Positions 2,828 to 49,401 of a stretch of DNA of 64,000 nt are shown in pieces. The position numbers and the translations under genes were made by a program. The DNA comes from Nitrospirota bacterium. GTDB lineage: Bacteria > Nitrospirota > UBA9217. Location of the stretch: the NCBI GenBank assembly GCA_963737155.1, contig CAVTRN010000002.1, forward strand, positions 544,001 to 608,000, in the 5' to 3' direction. Numbering within the stretch: position 1 is the first letter of the stretch; every line of letters begins with the position of its first letter. The notes under the pieces were generated by a model. The model had not been told where the DNA came from, ran no database searches, and saw only the letters and a program-made list of their open reading frames with translations.

Positions 2828-3760
2828 ATGCCGAAAGCGAAAATTCTTTACATCGAAGACAGTGAGGCTCAAGGAACAATCACAAAGAAATTCTTAGAGG
2901 ACGGCGGGTATGAGGTGACCTGGGTCCACGAAGGGATGTCTGCTTTTCGAGTAGCTAAGACACAACCTGTCGATGTCATATTGCTCGACCGCGTTTTGCC
3001 GGATATGGACGGAAGCAGGGTGTGCGGTTGGCTCAAGCAAAATGAGCGTACCAGGGGAATTCCGATTATTATGCTCACGGCCATGAATACCACAGCTCAG
3101 AAAGTCCAGGGATTAGAGGCTGGCGCCGACGATTATCTTGCCAAACCGTATGAGGAAATAGAGTTGAGCGCCCGGGTGTATGCCGCATTGAGGACGAAGA
3201 ACCTCAGAGAGGAGCTGAGCCGGAAGAACGACGAATTGCAAATGATGATCAAGAAAGTCGAGGCCCTGTCTATTACAGACGCGCTGACCGGGCTTTTCAA
3301 CAGAAGACGGTTTGAGGAGGCGCTGGATTCGGAATTTAACAAAGCCAGCAGATACAAGTTACCCCTCAGTTGCATGATGGTGGACATTGACCACTTCAAG
3401 GACGTAAATGACACCTATGGCCATCCCGTTGGAGACGCGGTCATCAAAGACATTGCGTTGATCCTTAAGCAAAGCGTCAGAGGCGTAGATATGTTATCCC
3501 GCTGGGGCGGAGAGGAGTTTATCGTGCTTGCCCCGATGACGCCAAAAGAAGACGTGATGTATCTAGCGCGTAGAATCTTAAAAACAGTAGCCGATCACGT
3601 CTTTGCGGGTATGGGCGACAAGAGAGTGACCATTAGTATCGGAATCGCCGATCTATCCAGCCCCGGCAGCGACGCAGCATGTAGATTGGTCCAAGCGGCC
3701 GATAATGCCTTGTACGCGGCAAAAGATAAAGGGAGGAACAGAATTGAAACGGCGGGGTAA
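2828..3760 (+). CDS. REC-GGDEF response regulator diguanylate cyclase (PleD/WspR-like)
   Basis: REC (IEDS, LLDRVLPD, YLAKP), DALTGLFNRR, DIDHFKDVNDTYGH, RWGGEEF; AAGGAG RBS. Confidence 0.95.
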   Translation: MPKAKILYIEDSEAQGTITKKFLEDGGYEVTWVHEGMSAFRVAKTQPVDVILLDRVLPDMDGSRVCGWLKQNERTRGIPIIMLTAMNTTAQKVQGLEAGADDYLAKPYEEIELSARVYAALRTKNLREELSRKNDELQMMIKKVEALSITDALTGLFNRRRFEEALDSEFNKASRYKLPLSCMMVDIDHFKDVNDTYGHPVGDAVIKDIALILKQSVRGVDMLSRWGGEEFIVLAPMTPKEDVMYLARRILKTVADHVFAGMGDKRVTISIGIADLSSPGSDAACRLVQAADNALYAAKDKGRNRIETAG

Positions 3761-3906
3761 GAAATGACCCCTGCAGCGGAGCAGCAAGGGCAACATGAGA
3801 ACTTAAAACCTATTTGCTCACGATGCTGATTTATAGTCCTGAACTCCGACACTATGCAAATTATGGCATATAAGACTGGGTATTTACGAACCACAATCAG
3901 ATCGAT

Positions 3907-4329
3907 TTACTGGGGGGGTGGAACTATAACCACTCTATTTCGGCGATTTTCTGACCGGCCTTGTATGCCTAAGCCTTTTTTCCTGAAGGCCATTGTGTAA
4001 ATCCACACATTGACGATGATAAGAACGATGGTCGATACGAAGACGAGCGTGGTTGAGACATCAGCATAAACAAGCTGCTCTGCGTAGTGGGCGATGAACG
4101 AACCCGGATAAACTTGCGCCGTGCCCTGTTTTTCTCTAAGCCAGACCTCAAGATGCGTGAGAGGGCAGTACCATCCGAATATCTGACTGGCAACTGCGAA
4201 GCCAAATCCCGCCCCCTGAATCAGCATAACTTCACCTTTTTTTCTACCCCAGTACGCACCGCCAATGAGAAAAAGTATCCAGAAAAGATGGACAACAACG
4301 ACGATGTCTGCAAGGACTCGGTAAAACAT
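3907..4329 (-). CDS. DUF2784 membrane protein
   Basis: LADIVVVVHLFWILF, GWYCPLTHLE, SFIAHY motifs; GGAGG RBS. Confidence 0.8.
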   Translation of the reverse strand: MFYRVLADIVVVVHLFWILFLIGGAYWGRKKGEVMLIQGAGFGFAVASQIFGWYCPLTHLEVWLREKQGTAQVYPGSFIAHYAEQLVYADVSTTLVFVSTIVLIIVNVWIYTMAFRKKGLGIQGRSENRRNRVVIVPPPQ

Positions 4330-4558
4330 AAAATGTTCACCCTCCTGATATCGTCTAGTCCCGCGTCTTTTCCCGATGCGAAGCGTCCTGAAATTAAGGG
4401 GGATACTATGTGTATATATCCTCTTATATATTTTGATTGAGAGTCAGCAGGCGGTTGTGAACTCATATACCCTTCGTTGAAAGCGTTTTCATAACTTACA
4501 ATGGAATCTTGTTGAAGCAAGTAGGAAACTGTGTCAAAAGCCGGTAGCGGCCTGATTC

Positions 4559-5689
4559 CTACTCTTCTCCCAGCTCCATTATCGCGGCCAAATAACCCAT
4601 GATGTCCTTGAGGGAGATAATGCCTACAAGCCGCTCGTTTTTCACTACCATGAGCCTGCTGTTCCCCGTTTTCCCCATCATTGAAAGGGTCTGCAAGGCG
4701 TCGGCGCCGGACTCGACGCTGTTTTCGACTGAGCACCGGTCGAGCCGCTCACCCACTGTGTTGCGGTCCCATTCTTCCTGTGGAATTATCTTTACCCGCT
4801 GGGTTGTAATGCACCCGAGGAGTTTGTCGCCCTCCACAACAGGAAACATCTTGAAGTGGTACCGGTAAATGTAGGCTTCCACCAGTACCTTGATGGTGAT
4901 CGACGGCGGCGTAGTAACGGGTTGCGGGTTCATAAACCGTTCGACGGTCTTGCCTGCCAGCGCGTTGTGAAACATGGTCTGCCGGTAGGACGACTCGGCA
5001 GCGGAGCGGAGGAACATGCCTATCATGAACTGCCAGAGACCACCGATAACGTTGCCGAGGAAAAGATTCGCAACGCCGATAAGCATGAGGAAGACGCCGA
5101 AGCCCGATCCGATTTGCGATGCGATGCGCGTTGCCTTGCGCAGGTTCTTTTTCCAGTGCCACAAGGCTGCTCGAAGCACACGGCCGCCGTCAAGCGGGAA
5201 CGCCGGAACCATATTGAAGAGCGCAAGGATCCAGTTAATAGATGCCAGATATGAGAGCACGCCATAAGTGTCGATAGTAGACGCAGCACCCTTCATCAAC
5301 AATGCCGCGGCATAAAACACCATCCCGAGAACGACGCTGGAGATTGGGCCAGCCACTGCCATGAAAAACTCGGTCTTCGGGCTATGGGGCTCATCTGCCA
5401 TTTCCGCCACGCCTCCGAAGATAAACAGAGTGATGCCTCGCATGGGAAGACCGAACCGCCGGGCGACGAGTGAGTGGCAGAACTCATGGAACAGGATCGA
5501 GAAAAACAGGCCCGCAGCTCCGGCGATGCCCATCCACCAGTATCTGGCAGGGGCAAGGCCCTGATAATAATGAGGGAACAGGCCGACGGATAGCGACCAG
5601 GTGACGAGAGCGGCGAGAATCAACCAGCTCAGGTCAACGCGAACCTCGAAGCCGAGAAAACGAAACAGCTTGATGCGTTTTCCGAACAC
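4559..5689 (-). CDS. site-2 protease (M50) with C-terminal CBS pair
   Basis: HEFCH zinc motif, FNMVPAFPLDGGR, two CBS domains; GTG start after GGAGG. Confidence 0.92.
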   Translation of the reverse strand: MFGKRIKLFRFLGFEVRVDLSWLILAALVTWSLSVGLFPHYYQGLAPARYWWMGIAGAAGLFFSILFHEFCHSLVARRFGLPMRGITLFIFGGVAEMADEPHSPKTEFFMAVAGPISSVVLGMVFYAAALLMKGAASTIDTYGVLSYLASINWILALFNMVPAFPLDGGRVLRAALWHWKKNLRKATRIASQIGSGFGVFLMLIGVANLFLGNVIGGLWQFMIGMFLRSAAESSYRQTMFHNALAGKTVERFMNPQPVTTPPSITIKVLVEAYIYRYHFKMFPVVEGDKLLGCITTQRVKIIPQEEWDRNTVGERLDRCSVENSVESGADALQTLSMMGKTGNSRLMVVKNERLVGIISLKDIMGYLAAIMELGEE

Positions 5690-6411
5690 TGCCACCTCCC
5701 GAGTTTGTCTGCTATTCCTTATTATTATAACTCCCTTCGTCGTCGAGAGCATTCATCCCTGCGAGTATTCATGGCGGATTTTTCCAACCACTGACCTTAC
5801 CACTATGAATGTTTCATACAATTTTTACAGAGTTTTTAACGGGCTGCGGTGACGCAATAATCGATGGAGAGCGCAACATTTGTGAACTTAGCGGGTACAC
5901 TGCTTTGAGTTGAAATCTGGAATGTTGATACGCAACCTGTCCATCCGAGATTATTACTTTCTTGGGCGCCTTTTTAACGCCCATCCGAATTTATTCAAAA
6001 TATTTAGAGCCACATTTCCCTCGGTGTCGAGGCTGGAATGCAACGCATTGATATGACGGAGTAATTAAAAAATCTTTTGGGTCGTAACCGGTAAGCGGTT
6101 TGTTCGGCTGGATGAGTTTAAAAGAAGCAAGATAAATAGGTGTACTTGAATACTATTGTTTGCATGGAACGTACAAAGACGGTTATGCCCTTACTGGACT
6201 TGGGGTATCATGAAGAAAGAAGGGGTACTTGTTCTCTGTCAGGACGCCATGGTGCTCCTTGGCAGAAAACGAACCCCGTGCTTGGGATTTGTTTAGTACC
6301 CCATCGATGAGGAAATGTTAAAACCCGCACTCTTCATCCCGATCGTTAATGAAACCCCAATCCTCGTAACCGTTGAGGAACTTCCTCGTCGTTACCGCTG
6401 GAAGCCCTAAA

Positions 6412-6714
6412 TTAAAAGCCGGAAGCCTTTGAAAAAACGGTGGCCTGGTCATTCAGGAAATAAATATCAGGCTTGTCGATGACACCTGCTTTCTCCATAG
6501 TCTCCCTTAACTCCGCAGATTCAGAAAACGCCTTTGCACGGCCGATGTCTTTGGCCTCAAATAGAAGAATCACCTCATTTGTATCGTTTGCGCTGCGGAA
6601 AAGATGCTTCTCGGTAAGACCCGCCTCGATCCGCTTTGGAAGATGGGCATCGTAAGCTCGCTTCCATACAGAATAATCCCTGACTTTATGTCGAACAAGC
6701 ACATATGTAAGCAT
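6412..6714 (-). CDS. small conserved protein (ABM/cyclase-like ferredoxin-type fold)
   Basis: VRHKVRDYSVWK...MEKAGVIDKPDIYF; GGAGG RBS. Confidence 0.65.
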   Translation of the reverse strand: MLTYVLVRHKVRDYSVWKRAYDAHLPKRIEAGLTEKHLFRSANDTNEVILLFEAKDIGRAKAFSESAELRETMEKAGVIDKPDIYFLNDQATVFSKASGF

Positions 6715-7116: not shown

Positions 7117-8319
7117 TTACTGCAACGTGAAGTAGAACGTCGCGCCCTTCCCCACTTCAGCTTCAGCCCAGATACTACCACCGTGTCGGTGAATGATACG
7201 TTGCACGGTGGCCAGTCCGATACCTAGACCCGGAAAATCAGCGGTCTTATGAAGTCGCTGAAACGCATTGAATAATTTATTCGCGTATGCCATGTCGAAT
7301 CCAGCTCCGTTATCTCGGACAAAATATACGTCTCTGCCTCGCTTTTGCGTGACGCCGAATTCGATTCGCGCCGTTTCACACCTTCCTGTATACTTCCAGG
7401 CATTGCCAAGAAGGTTTTCAATCACGATATGCAGCATGGCGGAATCTCCATTGACGATTAGTCCGTCTGTGATGACGAGCTCCACATAACGGCCGGGTTG
7501 ACTTTTTCTGAGTTCTTCAGCCGTGGCCTGCGCTAACTGGCTCATATTCACCGGCATATAATTTATCTCGGTGCGTGTTAGCCTCGACACATTGAGCAGA
7601 GCGTCGATGAGCTGCCCCATCTTATTAGTGGCCTCACGTATGCGGTTGAGATAATCTTTACCATTGGCATCTAGCTTGTCTGCATATTCTTCAAGGATTG
7701 CGTGGCTAAAACCTCCAATGCTTCTGAGCGGAGCCCTCAAATCATGAGATACCGCATATGCAAAGGATTCCAGCTCTTTGTTCGTGATTTCCAGCTGCGC
7801 AGTACGATCAATGACGCGCTGTTCGAGTTCTTTGTTAAACTGTCGGATGCTTTCATCCGAAATTTTTCGTGAATTTGCCGCTCCGATAAGCCCGGCGATC
7901 GCTAAATAGAGATCAAGAGTATCCTTTGCCAGAGAGGTGGATGACCGGTGCCCCACCATCATCACAGCGACTGGCCGGTTTTCGTGAAGTATGGGCAAGA
8001 ATGCTGTAGCGATCGGATTCTTAGGTGAAAATGTAAAGAACGTGAGAAAACCGCTTTCAAAAACATCCCTCGCCGCTGCGATCACTTCCGGCTCAGATAT
8101 CTTTGTCGATGCGCCTCTTTCGGAAAATGCCCAGTGATTGATCTCAACGTCTCGATCATTACGGTAATTTACAAAGGTTACGACGTCGGCCCCAAATAGG
8201 TTAATGAGGACCCTTCCCGCCTCTTCCCAGATATCTTGTCCGGATGTCAGGCCGGCAAAATATTGCGCGGCATTTATAAACGCTTTTAACTGCTCTTTAT
8301 GAGAAAGTGATTTTATCAT
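7117..8319 (-). CDS. cytoplasmic sensor histidine kinase with GAF-like N-terminus
   Basis: HisKA SHDLRAPLR, NLLGNAWKY, DNGAGF, FQRLH, GIGLATV; no TM segment apparent. Confidence 0.92.
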   Translation of the reverse strand: MIKSLSHKEQLKAFINAAQYFAGLTSGQDIWEEAGRVLINLFGADVVTFVNYRNDRDVEINHWAFSERGASTKISEPEVIAAARDVFESGFLTFFTFSPKNPIATAFLPILHENRPVAVMMVGHRSSTSLAKDTLDLYLAIAGLIGAANSRKISDESIRQFNKELEQRVIDRTAQLEITNKELESFAYAVSHDLRAPLRSIGGFSHAILEEYADKLDANGKDYLNRIREATNKMGQLIDALLNVSRLTRTEINYMPVNMSQLAQATAEELRKSQPGRYVELVITDGLIVNGDSAMLHIVIENLLGNAWKYTGRCETARIEFGVTQKRGRDVYFVRDNGAGFDMAYANKLFNAFQRLHKTADFPGLGIGLATVQRIIHRHGGSIWAEAEVGKGATFYFTLQ

Positions 8320-8322
8320 GGT

Positions 8323-9924
8323 CTATGCCAAAGCAATCGGTTGGAGATAGAGATGCTCAAGGAAGAGGGTGTCGAAATCGGAACAGTTGGATAAACTTAC
8401 AATCACTGTACGACTCCTTAATTCCCGTAAACGGTCTTCTGCCTTGGGTAAGAGGAGTAAGGCCTCGCACCCGGAGAGTGACGTGTTCCCTGCGGTTACT
8501 ATCAGCTGTTCGGATATAGACGGCAGAAGCCCAATCTCCTGTGCATTGACAACATTGAGATATTGGCCGAAAACGCCACCAATGAATATGCGTCGTAACT
8601 CATGATATCCCATGCCCGCTTTCGTTAAGAGAACCTTGACACCTACTCCGATGGCGGCTTTGGCACGCTGGAACATGTCGATGTCTTTTTTGGTTAGAAC
8701 GATCTCCGGGTTGCCACGGCAAAGGGGAAAGCCGTATTCGGGAACGGACGGTGCAAATTGACCTTTATTGTTCAAGGTCCTGTTCCTGACGAGGCAGGCA
8801 AGCAGGTCAACTAAGCCGGAACCGCACAGACCTCGAGATTCAGCGCCGCCAATGACTTCGAATGCGAGTTCTTCTGGTGCATCCGAAACATTAACCCGGC
8901 AGATTGCACCCGGGTCTGCAGGTATCCCACAGCTTATGCCGCACCCCTCGAAAGCGGGACCGCCGGCAGCAGATGTCGCCCAAAGATTGTTCCCATCCCA
9001 TAGGGCCATTTCCGAATTGGTACCGAAATCAACTAAAAGGGTTCCAGGCTCACCTTCCATCAGTCGAGTTGATACGATGCCGGATAGAAGGTCGGAACCG
9101 ACAAAGCCCGCCAGAGGCGGAATGACCTCGATAGCCGTTTCGGGTTTAATACCCCAACTTACGCCCCAGGAGGCCATATCCGCAGGGAGGCAGTCAATAG
9201 ATTCGGTCCAATAGCGTGGATCGAGCAGATTGAGATAGTTTTTCCCCGTCAAGAGAGCAATCATCGCAGTATTACCCACTAGGACAATACGCGCCACTTG
9301 ACGCAGGTCAATTCCTTCTCTATAACTGATATCATTTAACCCATCACCTATTGCTTGAATAACCTGGCGGCTCAGCTTTTCAGCCTGATCGATGGATTTT
9401 GCTGCAATCAAGCGTGTCAGGACATCGGACCCCGATGATGCTTGAGGATTCGGACCGCGGCGTCCCGACAAGCGGCGGCCAGTGACAAGATCCAATAACG
9501 TAATTGATATGTGGGTAGTTCCGAGATCAACAGCTACTCCGAGGGAGTGTCTGAACTGCGAATAGGGCGCCCGTGGCTTGCTTGGGGGAGATGCTGTGCC
9601 CGTTCCTTCGCTAAGGTAACGCCAGACGGATGGGGGCGCCGGGCTGAGAATCTCAATCTGAAGATCGTGAATAGCTTTAACTTGGCAGGCAAGCCGCACC
9701 CCCTGAGAAAGTAACACGGTGCCGAGGCTGGCCAGTTCATTCAGGGAAGGTTCGTCAACATGTCCGGCTGCGATTCTGATGCGGCACAGGCCGCAGGCTC
9801 CCGTGCCGTTACATCCGGCACGGACCCGAATGTCAGCTTCATCGAGGACATCACGGACAGAACGACCGGACACAAACGTTATGTGCCGATCTTTATCTGA
9901 TAGTTTTACGGTTAGAATCGGCAC
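8323..9924 (-). CDS. RACo/RamA-type ATP-dependent corrinoid reductive activator (2Fe-2S + ASKHA)
   Basis: CNGTGACGLC...RLACQ ferredoxin; AVDLGTT, GFVGSD, VDFGTNSEM, AAGGPAFEG, GLCGSG. Confidence 0.92.
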   Translation of the reverse strand: MPILTVKLSDKDRHITFVSGRSVRDVLDEADIRVRAGCNGTGACGLCRIRIAAGHVDEPSLNELASLGTVLLSQGVRLACQVKAIHDLQIEILSPAPPSVWRYLSEGTGTASPPSKPRAPYSQFRHSLGVAVDLGTTHISITLLDLVTGRRLSGRRGPNPQASSGSDVLTRLIAAKSIDQAEKLSRQVIQAIGDGLNDISYREGIDLRQVARIVLVGNTAMIALLTGKNYLNLLDPRYWTESIDCLPADMASWGVSWGIKPETAIEVIPPLAGFVGSDLLSGIVSTRLMEGEPGTLLVDFGTNSEMALWDGNNLWATSAAGGPAFEGCGISCGIPADPGAICRVNVSDAPEELAFEVIGGAESRGLCGSGLVDLLACLVRNRTLNNKGQFAPSVPEYGFPLCRGNPEIVLTKKDIDMFQRAKAAIGVGVKVLLTKAGMGYHELRRIFIGGVFGQYLNVVNAQEIGLLPSISEQLIVTAGNTSLSGCEALLLLPKAEDRLRELRSRTVIVSLSNCSDFDTLFLEHLYLQPIALA

Positions 9925-9928
9925 TAAA

Positions 9929-10942
9929 TTACCTCTTGGCGTGTGAGGCTGAGACCATCGCGCTTACGTTCTCAGGTTTGGATTCCGGCGGGATCTCACA
10001 ACCGGAAGAGAGAATAAAGCCGCCGCGTGTACTGAATAGTTCTAGCAATCTGGTCGATTCGTCAGCAATCTCGTGAGGCATCGCTTCGACAAAGGATAGT
10101 GATTTGATGTTGCCGTCGAGGCAGGTCCGCGGCAGAATTTGCTGAGCACTCAGCGGATCGATGCAATAATCGAAATTGGCGATTTCCACTCCGGCTTCAG
10201 GGTAATAAGGACAGATCGTGCCAGCCGGACCCGCAATGTGAATCCAGTTGGCGAGCGATCCCGCTGACTTGAATGCAGCAAATATTTTTTTGAGGCGGGG
10301 AAGTTCGAACTCGCGGAAAAACTGGGGGGGCACTACGGCTGGCGAGGCAGAAGGGTCGAATACCAATGGTACATGAGCCCCTGCTTCGATCTGCGTCAGG
10401 CCAAAAGTGATTGCTACTTCTCCGGCGAAGTCAAGAAATCGGCCAAACAAATCGGGATCGTCTACAGCAAGGAAGAGAGTCTTTTCCGGCCCCATCAGCT
10501 GCATTGCCAACGTCATCGGTCCTAACACACAGCCGACAATCAGGACCTCGTTTCCAAGTTTACTCCGCATAATCCGTGCTGCCTTGAGCATTTCCGTCAT
10601 ACGCCCACTCCGTTTGGGGTCCGGTATGGCCAGTTTACCCACTTCTTTGGCATTCTCAATGGCATATCGCTCGACACAAGGGTACATATCGTCGCGGTAG
10701 ATTAAGCGAGAACCTATTGCTTCGGTCTCCACGCTGGTATCCATGAGTGTAAAGACAGCATCGTAGCCATAGTGATCCAGTGCCCTCAACTGACAGCTCG
10801 CTAACAGCTCGCCGTCTCTGACATACTGTCTCAGAGGTACATTAGTAAGAACGGCGGCATGACCAAAAACTTGGGCAATCACCGGGACGCGGTCGGGTTT
10901 TCCAAAGCTCATTGCGGTCTGAATCCGTTCGATGCTGTTCAT
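9929..10942 (-). CDS. UroD/MtaA-CmuA family (MT2-type) corrinoid methyltransferase
   Basis: PDRVPV, EAIGS, GPMTLA, FDPSAS, GNI, GGFILSSGCEIPP...ENV. Confidence 0.88.
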   Translation of the reverse strand: MNSIERIQTAMSFGKPDRVPVIAQVFGHAAVLTNVPLRQYVRDGELLASCQLRALDHYGYDAVFTLMDTSVETEAIGSRLIYRDDMYPCVERYAIENAKEVGKLAIPDPKRSGRMTEMLKAARIMRSKLGNEVLIVGCVLGPMTLAMQLMGPEKTLFLAVDDPDLFGRFLDFAGEVAITFGLTQIEAGAHVPLVFDPSASPAVVPPQFFREFELPRLKKIFAAFKSAGSLANWIHIAGPAGTICPYYPEAGVEIANFDYCIDPLSAQQILPRTCLDGNIKSLSFVEAMPHEIADESTRLLELFSTRGGFILSSGCEIPPESKPENVSAMVSASHAKR

Positions 10943-11577
10943 CGAGTTTCCTTGGGTTGATGTTCAAGGTAGTGTAGGCCGTCAAAGACGGAATCCGCAA
11001 CAAAATCCACATTGAGAGCATTCGCGGAGGCCTGCTTCAATGCCGCGCCTCCCGCCAGCACCGTCACCTTTGCCAGTCCACGCGTTCGCGCTAGGGGAAT
11101 AACCTGCCTCACTAATGGTATGACGCTTGTTATGAGGCCGCTTATACAAATTACCGCTGCTTCTTCCCGTACGGCTGCTTCAACCAGCTTCTCGACCGGA
11201 CAATCCTTGCCGCAATCAACAACCCGGTATCCCTTGGCGATCATAATCGTCTTAACGATATTTTTCCCCAAGTCATGAACATCGCCCTCAAGGCTTGCCA
11301 ATACGATGGTTTCTCGTGTGGCTGATGGAGGTCCATCAGGATAAAGTGTCTTGATAACCCCCATCGCTGCCCGGCCGACAAGCATTATTTCAAGCAGGTT
11401 GAACTGCTCCACGGTGCATTTTGCATCAAGCCGCACCATGACAGACTCAATACCGTCGATAATGATCTGCTCATTGCTAATGCCAACATTTCGCAGTCTG
11501 GTTACCTCGGCTATAGCCCCTGTCTGATCCCCCTCCATCAAAGCATTAATAAGTTGGTCCATAGATTGTTTCTTCAT
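10939..11577 (-). CDS. cobalamin (corrinoid)-binding protein
   Basis: Helical cap plus EGDVHDLGKNIV (DxHxxG), ISGL, LAGGA; 4-nt overlap with the next gene. Confidence 0.93.
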   Translation of the reverse strand: MKKQSMDQLINALMEGDQTGAIAEVTRLRNVGISNEQIIIDGIESVMVRLDAKCTVEQFNLLEIMLVGRAAMGVIKTLYPDGPPSATRETIVLASLEGDVHDLGKNIVKTIMIAKGYRVVDCGKDCPVEKLVEAAVREEAAVICISGLITSVIPLVRQVIPLARTRGLAKVTVLAGGAALKQASANALNVDFVADSVFDGLHYLEHQPKETR

Positions 11578-11878
11578 AAGACATACCCTCTACCGTTTAC
11601 AGGATGAGAAATCACTGCCTTGAATTCATATAACAATTTAATGGCGGACGCATCATGATATCGCTCTGTAATTTCAATGTCAATGCAAAATCCGGCGGGG
11701 GATTAGGATATGAAATTTTCAGGGCATCTTTATAGTTCAGGGACTCGATCAAACTAGCAGGTATTACTTTCTTACTAGCATTTCCCCACTCAAGATGTGT
11801 ATTAAAAACATCTACATTCAAAAATAGACTTTGACAGGGAAGAAATTAAGTGGTACTCATTAGCAAATAATCAAAGAT

Positions 11879-11963
11879 ATTTCCCGACAAAGCTGACCTC
11901 TTCGCGAGAAGGGCGAAGAAAGCGGCGGGTCTTGAGATAAGATGGCCGAGCCGCCGAAGGAAA
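11879..11963 (+). ncRNA. c-di-GMP-I (GEMM-I) riboswitch aptamer
   Basis: CGACAAAGCTGA-CCTCTTC-GCGA-GAAGGG...AGAAAGC...GGGTCTT-loop-AAGATGGCCG..GCCG. GNRA-capped first stem, AAAGC junction and second stem as in GEMM-I; TTGACA lies at 11831. Confidence 0.72.
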
Positions 11964-11989: not shown

Positions 11990-12271
11990 CTGCATCCCGG
12001 ATGCCGTCCGCTATATCTGGGGAAAAACGGGGTATTTGGCATGTATTCGATAATTACAATCTGGCAATCTGACAAACGGCACACGGGACATACAGCGCGA
12101 AGTAGAGCCTGGACAGCTACCTAAAGACAGGCGGTCTTGAATTCGTCGCTCTAATTTGTTTAAATCCAAGCATCGAAAATCTAGCTCAATCGAGTATTAT
12201 GTGGGTGTGGAATAAAGCGCCGAATAAAATTAAAGACTGATAATGTCGGCGACAAATTGGAGGTGCGGCGC

Positions 12272-13903
12272 GTGGAACAGAAGACGGTCCTTGTCGTCGA
12301 AGACAGCATTGCCGATGCAGAGCTGGTTAGGCGCATGCTGATGGCATCCGATGGTGAATTTGCTGTAAGTAGCGCTGTTAGGCTGTCGACGGCGTCTGGC
12401 CTTCTCGAATCGAAGTCGTTCGACGCCGTAATCATCGATTTGAACCTCCCCGATAGCACGGGGCTTGACACCCTTCGAAAGATTCAGGAAAAAGCCTCGC
12501 ATTCCGCTATTGTCGTTTTGGCCAGTTATGCTGATGAAAATGCAGGTGTGGACGCTGTGGAAGTAGGTGCACAGGACTATCTCGTAAAGGACCATTTGAA
12601 GTCTGATGTTATTCACCGCGTCGTCCGGTATGCTATCGGTCGTAAACAGGTACAAGTACGTTTGCAGAAGTCTGAGGAATTGAGCGAGGCCCGCAACAGG
12701 ATAAACGATCTGATAAGTTCAACGCTGGACTTCGAGGAAATACTGAACCGTGTCATCGGAGAAGCGGCAAAATCCATCGGCGCTGAGGCCGCGTTGATTG
12801 GCCGATATGATGAAGGCGGATTTACTGTCAGATGCAATTATGGTCCGCTTGTCGGATTAAAGGACTTAGTTCTGCCGCAGGAAGAATTCAGAGCCTTTGC
12901 TACCCTGGAGAAGAATGGGATACCGATCATATCCGTTGACGCGCAGACGGACGAGCGCATCAACTCAGAAGTGGCGAAAAGGTATGGTGTCCACGCGGCT
13001 TTATTCTTCCCCCTGTTTGTGAATGGTTCGGTTACGGGGGCATTGGCTTGTTTTAATCTTTCGGTCCGTTTCTTCGACGACATCGAGGTTGATTCGGCTA
13101 GAAAAATATCGGCTTCTCTTTCCCTCGCCCTTGAAAACGCCCAACTCTACAAAGAATGCAGGGTCGCAGAAGATAATCTGAGGAAAAAGTCGATAGAACT
13201 CGAGAAGAAATCGAGTGAACTTGAGTTAAGCAACAGGGAACTCGAACAGTTTGCATCCGTTGCATCCCATGATCTACAGGAACCCCTGATTTCGTTCGCG
13301 AGCGAAATCAAACTGAGCCTGATACGGTTAAAAGGCAAGGCAGACGAGGAAGCGCTCCGGTACCTGTCCAATGCTTTGACTAATGCGGTAAACATGCAAA
13401 AAATGGTTCGGAACCTACTTGCATATTCACACGTTGGCAGGCATCCATCCTTTGAGAGTACGGACCTCGAAAAAGTTCTCGAGCTTGCCATCAACAATCT
13501 CAGATATTTTATTGAAGAATCAGGGGCTGTCGTTACTCATGACCCTCTCCCCCGGCTCTTTGTCGATCCTATCCTTGTTTCTCGGCTTTTTCAAAACCTC
13601 GTGGGCAATGCCATCAAGTACCGGTCTGGGAGGCCGCCGGAAGTCCATATCACAGTTGATTATCGAGACGGTGAACACATCTTTTGTGTTAAAGACAACG
13701 GAATGGGAATGCCGGTAGATTACGCAGACACGGTATTTCAGCTATTTAGGAGAATCCCCGGAGTAAATCGGACGTTAGGCAGCGGCATAGGGCTGGCCAC
13801 ATGCAAGAAGATCGTAGAACTGCACGGCGGCAGGATCTGGGTGGAGTCGGCAGAGGGAAAGGGGTCCAGCTTCTTCTTCGTACTTCCTGCAGCCATGAAA
13901 TAG
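12272..13903 (+). CDS. REC-GAF-histidine kinase
   Basis: N-terminal REC (VEDS, IDLNLPD, DYLVK), GAF ending LALENAQLY, SHDLQEPL, NLVGNAIKY, GSGIGL; GTG start after GGAGG. Confidence 0.92.
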   Translation: MEQKTVLVVEDSIADAELVRRMLMASDGEFAVSSAVRLSTASGLLESKSFDAVIIDLNLPDSTGLDTLRKIQEKASHSAIVVLASYADENAGVDAVEVGAQDYLVKDHLKSDVIHRVVRYAIGRKQVQVRLQKSEELSEARNRINDLISSTLDFEEILNRVIGEAAKSIGAEAALIGRYDEGGFTVRCNYGPLVGLKDLVLPQEEFRAFATLEKNGIPIISVDAQTDERINSEVAKRYGVHAALFFPLFVNGSVTGALACFNLSVRFFDDIEVDSARKISASLSLALENAQLYKECRVAEDNLRKKSIELEKKSSELELSNRELEQFASVASHDLQEPLISFASEIKLSLIRLKGKADEEALRYLSNALTNAVNMQKMVRNLLAYSHVGRHPSFESTDLEKVLELAINNLRYFIEESGAVVTHDPLPRLFVDPILVSRLFQNLVGNAIKYRSGRPPEVHITVDYRDGEHIFCVKDNGMGMPVDYADTVFQLFRRIPGVNRTLGSGIGLATCKKIVELHGGRIWVESAEGKGSSFFFVLPAAMK

Positions 13904-15924: not shown

Positions 15925-17448
15925 CAGGTTATACTGTTTTTAGTTGAAATTGAAAAGAGTGGCTCCCCCGTGGCATAATCCACGGTAGAGAGAGAAAAAA
16001 GAAAGGAGCCACTCAATGAAGGATACCACAAGGAAGAGAAAAAAGGCAATACGAGGAATTGAAGAGGCATACGGAAGGCGGGAGATCATCGAACAGATGT
16101 ATTGTGTCTTCGCAAAAGGGAAACAGGGTTTTGATGAATGCATGAAGGAAATGGGCAGAATGATGGCAGAGACGATCATGTACATCGAGCGGGAGGAGAT
16201 TGCCGGCCCCGACTACCAGCCTAACAGTCCCGATCTGCGGAAGTGGGCTAGCCAGGGCGGTTCCGTCTATATCGGCGATCAGAAGATCCCGGTGACCCAC
16301 CCTCGGCTTCGAGGTCCGGCGGGTGAGATTGTACTGCAGAGCTATCAGAAGATGAAAAAACCGGAAGTCTTCGCAGAAGAATTGCTTGGAAAGGTGCTTC
16401 GGGGCATATCATGCCGGAAGTATGCGGAGACAGTTGTAGATACGGCACGAGCATTTGGAGTGTCCGCCAGCACGGTATCGAGCCATATCGTCGCGGCAAC
16501 AGCAAAACAGCTTCAGGAGTTTAAGGAACGGTCACTCACGTCATTCGTTCCCTTTGCGGTCTTTTTAGACACTGTTCACCGCGGCGGAGAGGCATTCATC
16601 GTGGCGCTGGGGCTTGATATTGCCGGAAAGAAGCAGACATTGGGGTTCTGGCAGGGGGCGACGGAGAACCATGAACTGTGTGAAGAGCTGTTTTCTGATA
16701 TAGAGCGGCGGGGTCTGATACTTTCACGACGAATCATCTGGGTTACCGATGGCGGCAAGGGCGTAATCAAGGCACTCCGGGATCGCTTCGGTAAGAAACT
16801 CATCCATCAGCGGTGCACGATCCACAAGGACCGGAATATACAGCATCATTTGCCGAAGAAATACCGGAAAGGCGCACACTGGAGGTTCCGGACAGCCCTG
16901 GAGCAGAATAATTACGCGGACGCTCGTCAGATGCTTCTGGACATGGAGAAATGGCTTCGGGGCATTAATGAGTCGGCGGCTGATTCGCTCATGGAAGCGA
17001 TAGAAGACATTCTCACCCTTCATCGATTGAAGGTCCCCGCTCTCTTGAGGAAGACGTTGCATTCTACCAATCCTATCGAGAGCATGTTTTCCACGGTGAG
17101 AAAAGCAGAAGGCAATATAAAGCGCTACCGCGACAGCAAGATGATGCAGCGCTGGCTCGCTTCTGTCCTCTTATATGCTGAACAAGGATTCAGAAAGATC
17201 AAGGGCCACGCCTTCATCGCGGACGTGATGAAACGGATCGAAGCGGAAGAATTAAATGACCTAACAGTCAAAGAGGCTGCGTAAAGGGGGATGGTTAGGT
17301 ATGGCTCGGCCTCAGAAAACTCACATATGGCGATCCTACGAATCCGATTTTATAAACAGCGATGATTTACACCGTTGAACCGATAAAAATACTTTAGCCG
17401 AAGGGAACGGGCCACTCAGATAATTTCAACTAAAAGCTTGACCTCGTC
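15925..17448 (+). mobile_element. IS256-family element
   Basis: Imperfect IRs with core TTTTAGTTGAAATT..GAGTGGC; 8-bp target duplication TCGCGTTC at 15917-15924 and 17449-17456. Confidence 0.92.
16016..17284 (+). CDS. IS256 (Mutator) DDE transposase
   Basis: VFLDTV, VTDGGKG, QRCTIHKDRN, STNPIESMF. Confidence 0.93.
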   Translation: MKDTTRKRKKAIRGIEEAYGRREIIEQMYCVFAKGKQGFDECMKEMGRMMAETIMYIEREEIAGPDYQPNSPDLRKWASQGGSVYIGDQKIPVTHPRLRGPAGEIVLQSYQKMKKPEVFAEELLGKVLRGISCRKYAETVVDTARAFGVSASTVSSHIVAATAKQLQEFKERSLTSFVPFAVFLDTVHRGGEAFIVALGLDIAGKKQTLGFWQGATENHELCEELFSDIERRGLILSRRIIWVTDGGKGVIKALRDRFGKKLIHQRCTIHKDRNIQHHLPKKYRKGAHWRFRTALEQNNYADARQMLLDMEKWLRGINESAADSLMEAIEDILTLHRLKVPALLRKTLHSTNPIESMFSTVRKAEGNIKRYRDSKMMQRWLASVLLYAEQGFRKIKGHAFIADVMKRIEAEELNDLTVKEAA

Positions 17449-20136: not shown

Positions 20137-21771
20137 CCTAAAAAGAGCAGTTACCCTCAATCAGAGCCACTTATCCACACCATAACGGCAGAAGTTCAGG
20201 CGCCTGCAACGGTTTTCCACCCAGCAGTTTGAAAAATGCACGGCTCAAGATACGTCGCCACCGTTCACCTGGAGTCAACTGCTCCGCAGTTGTTTTCAGG
20301 ATGGCTAGAAAGCGGGATATCTCATCGAGAATGCGCTGAACTTTCCCAGAGCTTGCGTGCGCACTCGTGATGGTCATCATGGTCTGCCCTTGATGGCGTG
20401 TTTGTTTGCCAACCGCATGCAGAAGAAGTGGACGACTCGTAATTGCCTCCAAGTGTTTGTCCGGATGAGCAAGCCTCACGAAGAGCGACCACCAGTTGTA
20501 AACTAATGCTACGGTCCGCGCCATGAAGCCGCAGCGCTTAAGGTCCCGGGTCGTATATCCGCCCCACCCCCACTGATTCTTCAACTCGTCAAAAATATTC
20601 TCTGCATCCGCACGATCACGGTAGTGTTGGGCGATTGTGAGAATCTCGTCTTTGAGGGTGGTGGCTAGTACTGCATACTCATATCGCTTGGCAACTCCGG
20701 GCGCTTCCACAAACCCAAGTTCCATCTGATCCTTCTGCTGCAGGCTTATTGCTACGTCTCCCGTGAGCACTCGTCGAAGGATAATAACGCGACGAGATTT
20801 CTGCCATCCCATGAGTTGAAGGGATTCTTCCACACCCTCCCAGCCCTGTCCGGCATCTACCCAATCGTTACTATAGAATGCCTTCTCAATAAGCCTCCGC
20901 ACGTTCTTCGTGAGGCGTAGCTTCACGAGATAGGGCAATTCTTTTTCTTCTGCCTGACTCATGAAGCCGTCCGTGCCCCAGCCTGAATCCCCCCGGAAAA
21001 AGGCAGGCCAAAAGCGACGCGGGAGTCGTTCCAGAAGCTGCCATAACCCCGGGGTGCTGTAACACGTCGCTGTTTTGTTTCCGGCCTGCACCTCAACATC
21101 CAAAACAAGCCGGGTATTGGCCATCAGGTAACTGTGATAGGTGTGAGACGGCCTGCCGGGCTTATGCGGGTTGTAACCAATGACCGCGCCCTCTTGTTTT
21201 CCGTACAACGGTTTGACCGTCGTATCTCCGTCCATAATCCATGGCATGCACAGGAGGGATTCATAACATCGCCTCATGTGCTCAGTAAGCCATGAGATGC
21301 CGGCATGCTCATCCATCTGCTTAAATCCCCGCCGTACGGTGTCTTCGCTCACGACCTTCGTCATGCCGAGCAGTGCCGGGTTGACATTATCGCTTCGAAC
21401 GCTCGTCATGTGGGAATAACGATGGTGACCGGCTAGAACGGACAACAGGACCGTACCGAGAAGATCGCGTTTCTCGGGTGCGTTAGGACTCGTGTAGTGC
21501 AGTGGACAGTCTGCTACCCATGGTTCGTAGATTCCACCCGTCTTCAAAAAATCGATGAAGAACGCCAGCTGGCCCATTGGCGTAACGGCTGCTGTTGAAT
21601 CCCATTCAACATGCACTTTTCCTGCAAAGGTATCGACTGCAATTCTATCTGTTTTATCTGTAGGTGGAGATGAAATCGAGTCACCCATTGGGTGAGACCT
21701 CCTTGTTGAAAGAAGTATCATAGTATCCAATAGTTAACTCAGATTTGCAAGGCCCAACTGCCGTTTATAGG
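20137..21771 (-). mobile_element. IS1380-family element
   Basis: IRs CCTAAAAAGAGCAGTT / CCTATAAACGGCAGTT (13/16); 5-bp duplication TTCAT at 20132-20136 and 21772-21776. Confidence 0.88.
20171..21730 (-). CDS. IS1380-like DDE transposase
   Basis: MDGDTTVKPLYGKQEGA..GYNP, FRGDSGWG, YRDRADAENIFDELKNQWG. Confidence 0.9.
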   Translation of the reverse strand: MDTMILLSTRRSHPMGDSISSPPTDKTDRIAVDTFAGKVHVEWDSTAAVTPMGQLAFFIDFLKTGGIYEPWVADCPLHYTSPNAPEKRDLLGTVLLSVLAGHHRYSHMTSVRSDNVNPALLGMTKVVSEDTVRRGFKQMDEHAGISWLTEHMRRCYESLLCMPWIMDGDTTVKPLYGKQEGAVIGYNPHKPGRPSHTYHSYLMANTRLVLDVEVQAGNKTATCYSTPGLWQLLERLPRRFWPAFFRGDSGWGTDGFMSQAEEKELPYLVKLRLTKNVRRLIEKAFYSNDWVDAGQGWEGVEESLQLMGWQKSRRVIILRRVLTGDVAISLQQKDQMELGFVEAPGVAKRYEYAVLATTLKDEILTIAQHYRDRADAENIFDELKNQWGWGGYTTRDLKRCGFMARTVALVYNWWSLFVRLAHPDKHLEAITSRPLLLHAVGKQTRHQGQTMMTITSAHASSGKVQRILDEISRFLAILKTTAEQLTPGERWRRILSRAFFKLLGGKPLQAPELLPLWCG

Positions 21772-26044: not shown

Positions 26045-27667
26045 GAGTCTGTATTTTAATGCAAAAAACGCATTGCGCGAGTGCGACCGAGGACGCCGTA
26101 AGATGTGGTAATTCCCCCGCATTCGCGTTTATAGCCTCGCCGTTTGAGGTAGTTTCGTAATAACATAGCCATAATGCTAATTTTGAACGCACTGGTGCTA
26201 TAAGGGTTGATTGATGATTGAGTTTTCGTTACTATCGGGCCGTTTGAATCTTGGTGATCAGCAGTCCAGTCATAACCCGAATATTATACGCAATTGCACT
26301 CCAGTAAATCTTCGCGTTGAAGTGTGGTCGTGTCTTCCATTCGCAGCGAAACATATCGAACCCTCTTTTGAAATTCGATATGACAGCCTCGATGCCGCTC
26401 CGCCACTTCTTAAGACGCGTTTCCAGGTTCAGGCTGCTCGTCAAATTCTTGAGCGATCCAACGATCTTGTTGAATACGATATTGACGACCCCTTTATCTT
26501 TCGCCAGTTGCTGGTTCAAGAGAGACGCATAGCCGCCGTCCGTCGTCATATCGCGCGGCACGATGCCATAGTTTTCCTTGATTCGATCAATCACGCTGCC
26601 GTATTCCTGAGTGTCGCTGGGGTTGCCATCAAGAATCTTGCAGTCGATAATCAGCATGCTCGCACCTGTCGCCAGATTGATCTTATGCCCGAACGTCGCT
26701 TCACGTTTGCCTTTTACGATGATATCGGTATGATCCTCAAAGATCGAAAACAGCTTGTCCTCGTTCGGCACTTTCTCTCCAGGATCTCGTGGCGATGCGT
26801 CATGCTGTAAACCCTCTCCGCCTTCGGGAGAAGATTCTTGATTTCGGTCGCAAGAGCCAAAGCCGCATCATCTGCGTACCGAAGCGAAGGCAACACAACA
26901 AGCGCGGCCTCAGCCTGATTAATGCTGGTTCGAAGCAATTTCAACTGTTTTTCAAAGGTTTCTTTGCGCTTCTCGCCCGGCTTCGTGTTGTTGATCTTGC
27001 CGAAATGCTTCTTGGCCTGCTTCTTGTACCGCCGCCCCGTGATCACTCCACCGGTCTCTTCAGCGAGTTTTACGAGCAGCCGGTCAAAGGTCTTGATGCA
27101 GTCCCACATCAGCGAATTGTTCGTCGGATAATGGACGTTTGTCTCGATTGCCGTGGAATCGGTTCGCGCCTTGCTGAAATCATCAAGTCCTTCCGCTTGG
27201 GCAATCTTGTTGATTGCGATCATCACTTGCTCAAGCGTTTCCGCTTTGATCATCGAGATGTACTTCTGCCAGACCGAGAAGGATATGGGGGACCTGCCGT
27301 TAAGTTTGAGAAACAGCACGCAGATGCGAGAATCGTGTTGGGCGTACTCCAACTCCCGATATGTCAGCGTCTTCATCTCCTTATACAACGCGCCGCGCAG
27401 AATTTGCTCGATTGTGGGGGTGTCCTTTCTGCCAAGACTTTTTCCCGTGCTGCCCTTGAAGTCCCGTTTGACAAGCTCGTAAATTTCGGGATGCAACGAC
27501 AAAATCGTGTCGATAACCGCGAATTCCGTGTTGACTGCCCAGTGCGGATTCTCAAGCGTGAGTGTCAATTCGTTCAAAAGCTTCATCGTTTCCCCCTTGC
27601 TGATTTTGTTACGCCACTATACTTTTATCGTGCAGAATCAGCAAGTTAAATGATTAAATACAGACTC
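26045..27667 (-). mobile_element. ISNCY/IS5-like element
   Basis: Perfect 12-bp IR GAGTCTGTATTT; 6-bp duplication TAAATA at 26039-26044 and 27668-27673. Confidence 0.85.
26232..27586 (-). pseudogene. frameshifted DDE transposase (ISNCY/IS5-like)
   Basis: RTDSTAIETNVHYPT in the first ORF; KLFSIFEDHT, FGHK, DGGY, RSGIEAVIS in the second. One base is missing near 26780 (expected IL-GEKVPNEDK). Confidence 0.85.
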
Positions 27668-47824: not shown

Positions 47825-48958
47825 CTATAGCGTAAAAAAGAAGGTGGCCCCTATATCCAGCACCCCCTCGGCCCAGATGCGGCCCCCGTGCCGGTGAATG
47901 ATGCGCCGCACTGTGGCCAGACCGATGCCGTGTCCGGGAAACCGGGACTCTTCGTGGAGTCGCTGAAAGGGTTTGAAAAGCTTGCTCACATAGGCCATGT
48001 CAAATCCGGCTCCGTTGTCACGGACGAAATAGACAGGGTTGCCCGTCGGTCTCTGCACCCCAAAATCGATCCTCGCCTTACTGCGGGCAGCGGTGAATTT
48101 TACCGAGTTCCCCATGAGGTTCTCCAAAACGATCTGGAGCAACCTGCTGTCTCCTACGACGCGGATATCGGGCATAATGACGAACTCAATGTCGCGGTCC
48201 GGAAAGGACTTCACGAACTCATCGGCAAGAGCGTCTGCCAGCGCGCTGAGATCAACAGCTTCGCGTTTCATCTCGGTCTTCGCCACCTTCGATAGGGCCA
48301 GCAGATCGTCGATGAGCTGGGTCATCCGGATGCCCGCAGAATGGATGCGTTCGAGGTAGTTCCTGCTCTCCTCGTCGAGGTGCGCAGCATGGTCGCTCAT
48401 AAGGGCCTCACTGAAGCCGCACATGCTCCTGAGCGGAGCCTTCAGATCGTGCGAAACCGAGTAACTAAAAGACTCCAGTTCCTGGTTCGCAACTTCCAGT
48501 TGGGCCGCGCGGCGCTGGAGCGCCTCTTCGGCGTTCTTGAGCTTGGTTATGTCTTCCAGGATGAGCAGGCTGAATTCCTGGTCCCCGTGTCGGAGGGGGC
48601 TCGCGGTCACCATCATATGGACCTCGCCTGTCCCGCCATCGTGAATCAGCACCAGCTTCGCGGTCTCCCGTTGCACTGAGCCTCCCTGAAAACACCTGTT
48701 GACAGAGTTCCTGATCACACAATGCTTGCATGCAGGGGCTCCTCCACACCCTTCGGGCGTTTCAGTCGAATGAAGGCAATGCAGCGTATCACCGCCCCGC
48801 TTCAAAATGACCATATCCTTGTTGGCGCCCAAGAGTTTTAACGCGGCGGCGTTCAGGTGATGGATCCGCATATCGTGATCCACAATGAAGATGAATGAGG
48901 GAATCGTGTCTAGGAGGTTGTGGAAAAAATCTTCTTTATGTAACAGTTCCTTGGTCAT
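47825..48958 (-). CDS. cytoplasmic PAS histidine kinase with Cys cluster
   Basis: PAS with C-x9-C-x5-C-x2-C, SHDLKAPLR, FQRLH, GHGIGL; start uncertain (49030 possible). Confidence 0.9.
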   Translation of the reverse strand: MTKELLHKEDFFHNLLDTIPSFIFIVDHDMRIHHLNAAALKLLGANKDMVILKRGGDTLHCLHSTETPEGCGGAPACKHCVIRNSVNRCFQGGSVQRETAKLVLIHDGGTGEVHMMVTASPLRHGDQEFSLLILEDITKLKNAEEALQRRAAQLEVANQELESFSYSVSHDLKAPLRSMCGFSEALMSDHAAHLDEESRNYLERIHSAGIRMTQLIDDLLALSKVAKTEMKREAVDLSALADALADEFVKSFPDRDIEFVIMPDIRVVGDSRLLQIVLENLMGNSVKFTAARSKARIDFGVQRPTGNPVYFVRDNGAGFDMAYVSKLFKPFQRLHEESRFPGHGIGLATVRRIIHRHGGRIWAEGVLDIGATFFFTL

Positions 48959-49401
48959 GATATTGGCGTACTGGTAAGATAGGCCATGGTTCAACGGTTT
49001 AAAAATACAACATTCGGCAATTCTTTGCAAGAGGTATGTCGGCCCTTGAAATTACGGTTGTTGAATTCACTATAGGATAAAAGAGGACAGACGATATAAC
49101 GCTGATAAGTTACATGATTGTTAAATTTGGCCATCTCAGCTGGAAGGCTTCGGGAGTATTCTTGAAATAATAATAAACTGCATTTTTCAAGAAGCGACCC
49201 CAAATAGTTTCTTGAACAAACTGAATGTGCTATTCGCTGATGTTAACAGTTGCGGAAATTCCACTTGATGTGATTCAAAGAATAGCATCTTCACCAGCCA
49301 CAGTAGCGCCCGACACATGTTAAAACAACGACATTAAGCGTTTATTTAAAATAAGTCAGGTGTTACTCGTATTTGGCTGGAGGGGTCTGGCTAGAAAGTT
49401 T

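Follow-up and report, generated by a model that had tools for sequence, protein, structure and literature searches.

A conserved cassette of corrinoid protein, UroD-fold methyltransferase and GAF domain as a probable B12-linked signalling input in Nitrospirota and other phyla

Gene organization of the locus

We examined a stretch of 64,000 nucleotides from a Nitrospirota bacterium (GTDB lineage UBA9217; GenBank assembly GCA_963737155.1, contig CAVTRN010000002.1, positions 544,001 to 608,000 of the forward strand), hereafter the window, which contains a four-gene operon on its minus strand. The operon encodes, in order, a corrinoid protein of 212 residues (10939..11577; Pfam B12-binding and a weak match to the B12-binding_2 cap), a UroD-fold, MtaA/CmuA-like methyltransferase of 337 residues (9929..10942; Pfam URO-D), a short RACo-type corrinoid reductive activator of 533 residues with a GTG start (8323..9924; Pfam Fer2, Raco_middle and RACo_C_ter), and a soluble histidine kinase of 400 residues (7117..8319; Pfam HisKA, HATPase_c and a weak GAF_3) whose residues 1 to about 160 form a dedicated GAF domain (7840..8319). 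The open reading frames bear out a preliminary description of the locus as four co-oriented genes separated by a 4-nt overlap, a 4-nt gap and a 3-nt gap. None of the four proteins reached the cut-off of any of the NCBIfam families listed. Based on the comparisons described below, we suggest that this cassette is very probably a signalling input module.

The fourth gene product had been described as a soluble kinase with a GAF-like input, and this proved accurate. The Pfam GAF_3 match is weak (residues 27-148, below the cut-off), and an AlphaFold2 model with a predicted local distance difference test (pLDDT) of 89 folds the first 160 to 165 or so residues as a GAF domain. When this model was searched with Foldseek, the best matches were GAF domains, the top one being the GAF domain of Nlh1 (E 4e-8, 16% identity), and matches in the ESM Atlas were generic GAF clusters only, at 0.96. 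The kinase has no strongly hydrophobic segment (maximum over any 19 residues at most 1.36), and it belongs to the class I histidine kinases, with the phosphorylated His predicted at position 192 in HisKA and with the H, N, G1 and G2 boxes kept. The GAF motifs AQY and ESGFL are conserved and of surface type, and the domain is present in one copy in this genome. Since no conserved Cys column was found among 150 GAF proteins, we rejected a heme- or bilin-binding domain that acts through Cys.

Conservation of the cassette and exchange of its output

When we searched species genomes with the corrinoid protein, 35 loci were obtained, of which the 33 full-length ones were used and the partial L041 and L042 were dropped. 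According to their labels, the hosts are Nitrospirota, Anaerolineae, Desulfobacterota, Fermentibacteria and Alpha-, Beta- and Gammaproteobacteria, and the closest relatives of the present cassette are labelled Nitrospirota. The methyltransferase gene comes next after the corrinoid gene in 33/33 loci, and a GAF protein is encoded downstream in all 29 loci that are long enough, the other four contigs ending early. The fourth gene was readable in 26 loci and encodes a histidine kinase in 17 (of several classes), a GGDEF protein in five and an HD-GYP protein in three, and is broken in one. A metagenome scan with the corrinoid alignment, from which 80 of 594 loci were kept, contained six cassettes, with GAF in 4/4 of those long enough, and in L061 the order is corrinoid protein, methyltransferase and GAF-SpoIIE (PP2C), without RACo. 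Among the ordinary corrinoid or MetH-like loci of the same scan, GAF was found in 0/74, many of these contigs being short.

The association was also counted from the GAF side, using new GAF matches with E<1e-20 and leaving out this genome (G000), the profile loci including two apparent duplicates, and three weak matches. A cassette gene or its remnant lies directly upstream in 15/15 of these matches, namely RACo, or a ferredoxin domain together with the methyltransferase, or a fragment of the corrinoid gene (G126). The uncounted weak matches (E 9e-9 to 9e-7) were L146, which has a cassette-like methyltransferase upstream, L147, which lies at a contig end, and L151, which has no cassette gene. 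Because the gene order is conserved in several phyla, adjacency by chance was rejected. The neighbourhood comparison suggested at the outset yielded homologous trios followed by kinase, GGDEF, HD-GYP or PP2C proteins that share the N-terminal GAF domain, with no second methyltransferase beside them, so that the designation of a B12-linked signalling operon is well supported.

We then examined the GAF domain by itself, using its profile over all proteins, which gave 469 representatives at 50% identity. Among the best 150 of the GAF proteins, 147 have the start of the domain in their first 25 residues, and the outputs assigned by phmmer comprise 101 kinases, 11 GGDEF, four HD-GYP, four SpoIIE, one GGDEF+HD and one DNA-binding protein, with 28 unassigned. 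Rescanning of 15 of these 28, many of them fragments, revealed kinase domains in five and other outputs in none. Carriers include Methanoregula, Methanosphaerula palustris, Thermoleophilia, Sulfuricella and Thauera, and the hosts comprise sulfate-reducer-type bacteria, phototrophs and methanogens, with purple sulfur bacteria among them (L030, L157). The profile is found in 13/301 genomes of the same phylum, this genome included, and in 4/351, 2/301 and 5/301 genomes of three other groups; the distribution is rare and patchy. One cultured bacterium, Ca. Thiodictyon syntrophicum Cad16, carries a whole cassette with a diguanylate cyclase (THSYN_RS29480-29495) on its plasmid pTs417. M. palustris encodes the cassette methyltransferase as well as the GAF domain, the two lying on contigs of equal length, and its GAF protein is 78% identical over 316 residues to that of the intact cassette L059, from which we infer that the cassette genes are probably adjacent in archaea too. 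In L008, L017, L026, L055, L137, L148 and L039, a gene for the methyltransferase, RACo or the GAF kinase is interrupted by a frameshift or stop, or in one case carries Cys315Tyr, which reflects either decay or assembly error. In addition, the genes flanking locus L136 resemble those of L142, which has a full cassette.

The identities of the GAF domain follow those of the corrinoid protein and the methyltransferase, with correlations of 0.86 and 0.85, respectively, over 27 loci, and in the 17 kinase loci the Spearman coefficients were 0.92 against the corrinoid protein, 0.94 against the methyltransferase and 0.46 against the kinase core of the same protein, all of these identity correlations being crude and not phylogenetically independent. 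Two paralogues encoded in the window share 57% identity with the kinase core of this cassette, but of the eight Nitrospirota-like orthologous loci six share 43-47% and the remaining two 63% and 18%. Since the GAF domain tracks these two partner proteins more closely than its own kinase core, the output is the exchangeable part, and the corrinoid protein, methyltransferase and GAF domain are inherited as a unit while the output is exchanged. The window is rich in related soluble kinases (44745-46982, 47825-49030), which are possible donors of the kinase core.

Corrinoid protein, methyltransferase and activator

The corrinoid protein consists of a four-helix cap and a Rossmann B12 domain, and its model superposes on 1BMT and 3EZX with template modelling (TM) scores of 0.80-0.83. 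The DxHxxG motif for His-on binding is intact (His101), and this His is present in 46/46 cassette loci and 120/120 homologues. The protein thus shares the cap, the Rossmann domain and DxHxxG with the MtaC/MttC type, but it lacks the aromatic cap residue and misses the TIGR02370 cut-off (95 vs 215 bits). Instead the family has a cap motif of its own, Cys54 (codon 11416..11418) and Asn60, at positions where the controls mostly have Phe or Tyr. Cys54 is found in 46/46 cassette loci and 119/120 homologues, compared with 0/64 aligned ordinary corrinoid proteins, and it is aligned to the cap Phe of Thermus thermophilus methionine synthase (MetH) and of MttC, a position that we take to be Phe708 of the Escherichia coli enzyme, which touches the methyl group. 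The cap Phe of MetH shields the methyl group from photolysis. In the published description, cobalamin has its upper face covered by the cap, which swings off when a methyltransferase domain docks (PMC6257451), and a redox-labile upper-face Cys-Co bond is known in MMADHC (bioRxiv 10.1101/2023.07.25.550549). Judged from its position, Cys54 could be a cobalt ligand or a methyl acceptor.

The methyltransferase was expected to be an MtaA-type second methyltransferase (MT2), an expectation that holds for its fold and fails at its active site. The best PDB match of its profile is MtaA (4AY7, E 2e-35), and it is nearer to MtaA than to HemE, but it forms a clade of its own (support 100/98), is 22-28% identical to CmuA and the other UroD methyltransferases tested, and stays below the cut-offs of TIGR01463 (160 vs 235 bits) and NF040654 (112 vs 400 bits). 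Its metal site reads His235-x-Ala237 ... Asp258 ... Cys315, compared with His-x-Cys ... Cys in MtaA. Position 237 is Ala in 43 and Thr in two of the 45 locus proteins, and Ala in 119 and Ser in one of 120 homologues, while the equivalent residue is Cys in 4AY7 and in the four other UroD methyltransferases of this genome. The methyltransferase alignment did not include L023. Residues D68, E72, E74, H190, D258 and E316 occur in 120/120 homologues, Asp258 being invariant and Cys315 nearly so. It has been reported that the His-Cys-Cys set marks S-methyltransferases and that O-methyltransferases swap one or both Cys (Kountz and Balskus, PMC10418091), and CdmB is a zinc-free UroD-fold enzyme that acts on chloromethane as the substrate-specific first methyltransferase, MT1 (PMC13222342). 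Based on the loss of the His-x-Cys motif, this rule and the CdmB example, a role as a thiol-methylating MT2 seems unlikely. Since the zinc motif is lost and UroD-fold enzymes can act as MT1, what looked like an MT2 without an MT1 may be an MT1 without an MT2. A distant methyltransferase at L146 (G453; 43% identity, Asn-x-Thr motif) is sister to the cassette clade and may represent a divergent subtype; the gene immediately downstream of it encodes a kinase whose GAF match is only weak and partial.

The activator contains a [2Fe-2S] domain, a middle domain and an ASKHA C-terminal domain, all above the Pfam cut-offs, and its four Fe-S Cys and the nucleotide motifs DxGTT and DxGTNxE are conserved. 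By these domains and motifs it belongs with RACo/RamA, from which it departs in missing RACo_linker, a domain that three other RACo genes here do encode, and in scoring below the cut-off of the AcsV model (285 vs 800 bits). RACo lies between the methyltransferase and GAF genes in 27/29 genome loci, and it is fused to GAF-GGDEF in L034 and to GAF-kinase-REC-Hpt, a hybrid kinase, in L036. L022, L024 and L061 have neither RACo nor a fused ferredoxin. In L137-L140 (G242, G087, G151 and G194, from the genus of the present genome), the RACo ATPase is gone and a ferredoxin-GAF-histidine kinase fusion is found, as in database proteins P0224 and P0323, with all four Fe-S Cys kept; L137 is frameshifted. 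Resetting of the corrinoid protein by RACo, as first assumed, is therefore not universal, the ATPase was rejected as an obligatory part, and since RACo can be lost, the core of the cassette is the corrinoid protein, the methyltransferase and the GAF domain. We also observed a full-length RACo directly upstream of the cassette of G118 (L141 1843-3711), and a RACo-like open reading frame of this genome (L006 7602-9245) in which no ferredoxin domain was detected.

Partner methyltransferases in the host genomes

The 47 cassette loci, 533 kb in all, contained no homologue of AcsE, MtrH, AcsD or DUF1638 and no second one of UroD, in a search where MttB and MtaB were not queried. A CdhD match is present in 22/33 host genomes and absent in 11/33. 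Of the 11 hosts without CdhD, the cassette RACo is the sole RACo match in 10, and the methyltransferase is the sole URO-D match besides the presumed HemE in nine. When proteobacterial carriers were searched, four or five for each family, no MttB, no MtaB and no MtrH above the cut-off were found, and the only pterin-binding genes were two of the sizes of DHPS and MetH.

This genome, which is 100% complete, was checked in the same respect. The claim that the window holds no MT1 and no tetrahydrofolate methyltransferase agrees with the genome, in which MttB and MtaB are unmatched throughout and an AcsE-type gene and MtrH lie on another contig, although not all open reading frames of the window were scanned for MT1 families. 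Wood-Ljungdahl genes including AcsE are present, as are two other clusters of methyltransferase, corrinoid protein and RACo, whose proteins are 23-31% identical to those of the cassette. Owing to these Wood-Ljungdahl genes and methyl-transfer clusters, arguments against a metabolic role have to be drawn from other genomes. One cluster (L001 7117-19232; G000:C1 at about 907-919 kb) contains two UroD methyltransferases, MtrH, a corrinoid protein and RACo, together with a CCG-domain protein and pyridoxal phosphate and thiamine pyrophosphate enzymes. The other (L003 2869-17851; G000:C2 at about 691-706 kb) contains a PAS kinase, a LuxR regulator, two UroD methyltransferases, a CobW-type GTPase, a CbbQ/NorQ AAA protein, a corrinoid protein, RACo and DUF1638.

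Proposed mechanism and alternative explanations

Based on these observations, we lean slightly towards a new sensory class, in which the methyltransferase would write, and RACo or the ferredoxin would reset, an alkylation or redox state of a corrinoid with Cys over its cobalt, and the GAF domain would relay that state to kinases, c-di-GMP enzymes and phosphatases in bacteria and methanogenic archaea. This proposal builds on observed co-inheritance, output swapping, fusions, a missing partner and residue changes, and each of its biochemical steps, including the partner that the GAF domain contacts, is inferred from them. The bound cobamide would be poised as Co(I) by RACo, or by some other reductant that works through the ferredoxin domain, and the single methyltransferase, working in the MT1 direction, would transfer a methyl or small alkyl group to cobalt from an environmental donor, for which methyl halides and O- or S-methylated compounds are candidates. 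With no MT2 to remove the group, alkyl-Co(III) would build up, and the cap, whose Cys54 would point towards the upper side of cobalt, would shift its position. The GAF domain would read this state by protein contact and switch the kinase, cyclase, phosphodiesterase or phosphatase. For this particular chemistry, a dead-end MT1 that alkylates Co(I) and a GAF domain that reads the state of the corrinoid protein, the chances appear to be even.

Here, we need to consider several points that weigh against this proposal. First, the Co(I) poise is not universal, since RACo is missing in L022, L024 and L061 and is without its ATPase in L137-L140. Second, His235 is replaced by Asn in 5/45 and Cys315 by Tyr in 1/45 locus proteins, and these variants suggest that the methyltransferase may be a non-catalytic scaffold. 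Third, the near-complete genome G126 has an open 795-residue GAF kinase at L136 (G126:C2, locus 3181-5975) with only a 77-residue corrinoid fragment upstream. Fourth, no shared gene that names a substrate was found among the neighbours scanned. Fifth, the carriers without MttB, MtaB and CdhD are mostly metagenome-assembled genomes of unstated completeness, so that the absence is suggestive only, and in this genome AcsE and MtrH could act as MT2 in trans. Finally, the co-inheritance is gauged by the crude correlations mentioned above. Predictions of a complex of methyltransferase, corrinoid protein and partner GAF domain scored 0.00 in two runs whose controls did not fold, which speaks neither for nor against a contact.

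It is possible, though unlikely, that the cassette is instead a redox or oxidant sensor, in which cobalt would cycle between Co(I), Co(II) and a Cys54-ligated form with the low-potential electron supply or with O2 or NO, the methyltransferase would be a scaffold, and the ferredoxin would be a relay read by the GAF domain. The [2Fe-2S] domain survives deletion of RACo with all four Cys, fused to a GAF kinase in four genomes and two database proteins, the zinc site of the methyltransferase is degenerate, and Cys54 takes the place of the cap Phe in a cap that lies over the upper face of cobalamin (PMC6257451), where MMADHC provides the precedent of a labile Cys-Co bond (bioRxiv 10.1101/2023.07.25.550549). 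However, the methyltransferase is kept more strictly than RACo (33/33 loci), its invariant acidic and His residues exceed what a scaffold needs, and in three loci both RACo and a fused ferredoxin are missing.

A further explanation is that the cassette transfers methyl groups for ordinary metabolism or detoxification and brings along a regulator, whose GAF domain would bind the substrate directly, as proposed for MecA, with the second methyltransferase encoded elsewhere. Kinases are indeed known in corrinoid clusters (mecA, bioRxiv 10.1101/2021.08.30.458270; MsmS/RdmS, PMC6944256), CdhD is matched in 22/33 hosts, AcsE and MtrH are present in this genome, and G126 retains the kinase without the trio. 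We consider this explanation improbable, however, since a catabolic operon is unlikely to be controlled by a c-di-GMP cyclase, a phosphodiesterase or a PP2C phosphatase, a DNA-binding output was found in only 1/150 GAF proteins, RACo and ferredoxin are fused to the signalling protein, and the cassette is intact in proteobacteria without a match to CdhD, MttB, MtaB, MtrH or a stand-alone pterin-binding methyltransferase (four or five genomes each).

The GAF domain might also read apo against holo corrinoid protein and so report the cobamide supply, in which case the UroD-fold protein and RACo would help to load the cofactor, as the intact B12 motif and the binding of tetrapyrroles by the UroD fold in HemE would allow. 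This is very improbable, given that the methyltransferase is closer to MtaA than to HemE, that B12 transport or synthesis genes do not recur among the neighbours scanned, and that transcription factors for B12 genes are not among the outputs. Least probable of all, if only by a little, is a self-resetting methylcobalamin photoreceptor, in which light would cleave CH3-Co, RACo would re-reduce and the methyltransferase re-methylate the cobalt, and loss of the cap Phe would raise light sensitivity, since the resemblance of the corrinoid model to the B12 domains of CarH and photocobilins is equalled by the MetH and MtmC caps (TM about 0.8), most carriers are non-phototrophs despite the purple sulfur bacteria among them (L030, L157), and the CarH signature is lacking, with Cys for Trp and no cap His (PMC11796333).

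Comparison with known systems

The mec cassette for anaerobic use of dichloromethane consists of the MecA kinase, the MecB corrinoid protein, the MecC, MecE, MecF and MecI methyltransferases and the MecH RACo (bioRxiv 10.1101/2021.08.30.458270), and likewise clusters a kinase with a corrinoid protein, an MtaA/CmuA-type methyltransferase and RACo. A reduced mecABC trio occurs in two Dehalobacter genomes, and the abundance of MecA prompts its authors to consider another role (bioRxiv 10.1101/2021.08.30.458270). However, mec has a MecA with a PocR domain, a cognate regulator MecD, four methyltransferases including the MtrH-type MT2 MecF, and a catabolic role, whereas the present cassette has one methyltransferase, a private GAF domain in place of PocR, five kinds of output and RACo or ferredoxin fusions. 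Identity with mec was rejected because the sensor domain is GAF rather than PocR and no MtrH or second methyltransferase was found in 47 loci, a comparison made with the description of mec rather than with Mec sequences.

Type 1 mlp clusters also combine a UroD-fold methyltransferase, a corrinoid protein and Ram/RACE without a tetrahydrofolate methyltransferase (PMC10418091). They have at least Mlp2 and Mlp3, His-Cys-Cys zinc sites, S/Se neighbours and no conserved synteny, while the present cassette has a single His-Ala-Cys enzyme, a fixed order and always a signalling gene. With one UroD-fold gene per locus (47 loci) and no His-Cys-Cys sphere, it was rejected as a type 1 mlp cluster. The text of the mlp paper (PMC10418091) contains no match for GAF, signal, sensor or diguanylate, though such loci might be among its non-type-1 clusters (under 5%). 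MtaA/MtaC, the MT2 and corrinoid protein of methylotrophic methanogens, and the chloromethane systems CmuA and CdmBCA (PMC13222342) are similar in fold and partners, but the cassette methyltransferase forms its own clade, has lost the His-x-Cys motif that CmuA keeps, and has no MT1 or MT2 partner.

CarH, AerR and photocobilins likewise signal through a cap and B12 domain of similar fold, which in some cases is coupled to a GGDEF, kinase or SpoIIE output; however, they bind adenosylcobalamin through GxxW/EH, sense light and work without a methyltransferase or RACo (PMC11796333, PMC8717448). With DxKC and EI in the cap instead of GxxW and EH, and 23 vs 400 bits against the CarH model, the corrinoid protein was rejected as a CarH-type photoreceptor. 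MsmS and RdmS of Methanosarcina acetivorans are also sensor kinases with GAF/PAS domains and a link to corrinoid methyl-sulfide metabolism, and have been described as heme- or thiol-based sensors that regulate methyltransferase genes (PMC6944256), whereas the cassette GAF domain has no conserved Cys and its input appears to be the corrinoid protein. The literature searched, which covered few subscription papers and lay outside the supplements of the mlp and mec papers, gave no description of the cassette, which is real, conserved and apparently undescribed.

Surrounding features of the window

A sigma70-like promoter consensus, TTGACA-17-TATCAT, lies at 11655..11683 (minus strand), 78 nt upstream of the corrinoid gene; it matches 11/12 consensus positions and is the best-scoring of seven sites in the region, compared with 7.7 expected by chance. 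The search listed no RNA runs with the operon. Rfam gave no match in the window at the gathering threshold. A c-di-GMP-I-GGC-like riboswitch at 11883-11959 (+), with E 3.5e-10 and a score of 48.3 bits, below the gathering score of 59, lies in the leader of a divergent REC-GAF-kinase gene (12257-13903), and altered letters in its first stem may have changed its ligand specificity. An open reading frame of 100 residues (6412-6714, -), 402 nt 3' of the kinase gene, has no Pfam match and its own promoter-like site (6847-6820), and is probably outside the cassette. Insertion-sequence-like open reading frames were recognized by eye at 1023-1589, 16016-17284, 20171-21730, 26232-27586 and 55193-57437.

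Biological implications

B12 is known as the cofactor of the light sensors CarH and photocobilins (PMC11796333, PMC8717448), and the cassette suggests a use of B12 chemistry as a sensor rather than in metabolism. Where cassette genes are annotated as uroporphyrinogen decarboxylase or methylamine corrinoid protein, they should not be taken as a sign of methylotrophy in metagenome-assembled genomes. The idea lends itself to direct testing, since the four proteins are soluble, their cobalt states can be read by colour, two residues (Cys54 of the cap and Ala237 of the methyltransferase) can be changed, and a carrier whose output is a diguanylate cyclase is in culture. If true, corrinoid methyl transfer as a receptor would represent a different principle, sensing by a covalent organometallic reaction, and the plausible signals would be methyl halides, methylated sulfur, O-methyl compounds or reducing power in anoxic soils, sediments and lakes.

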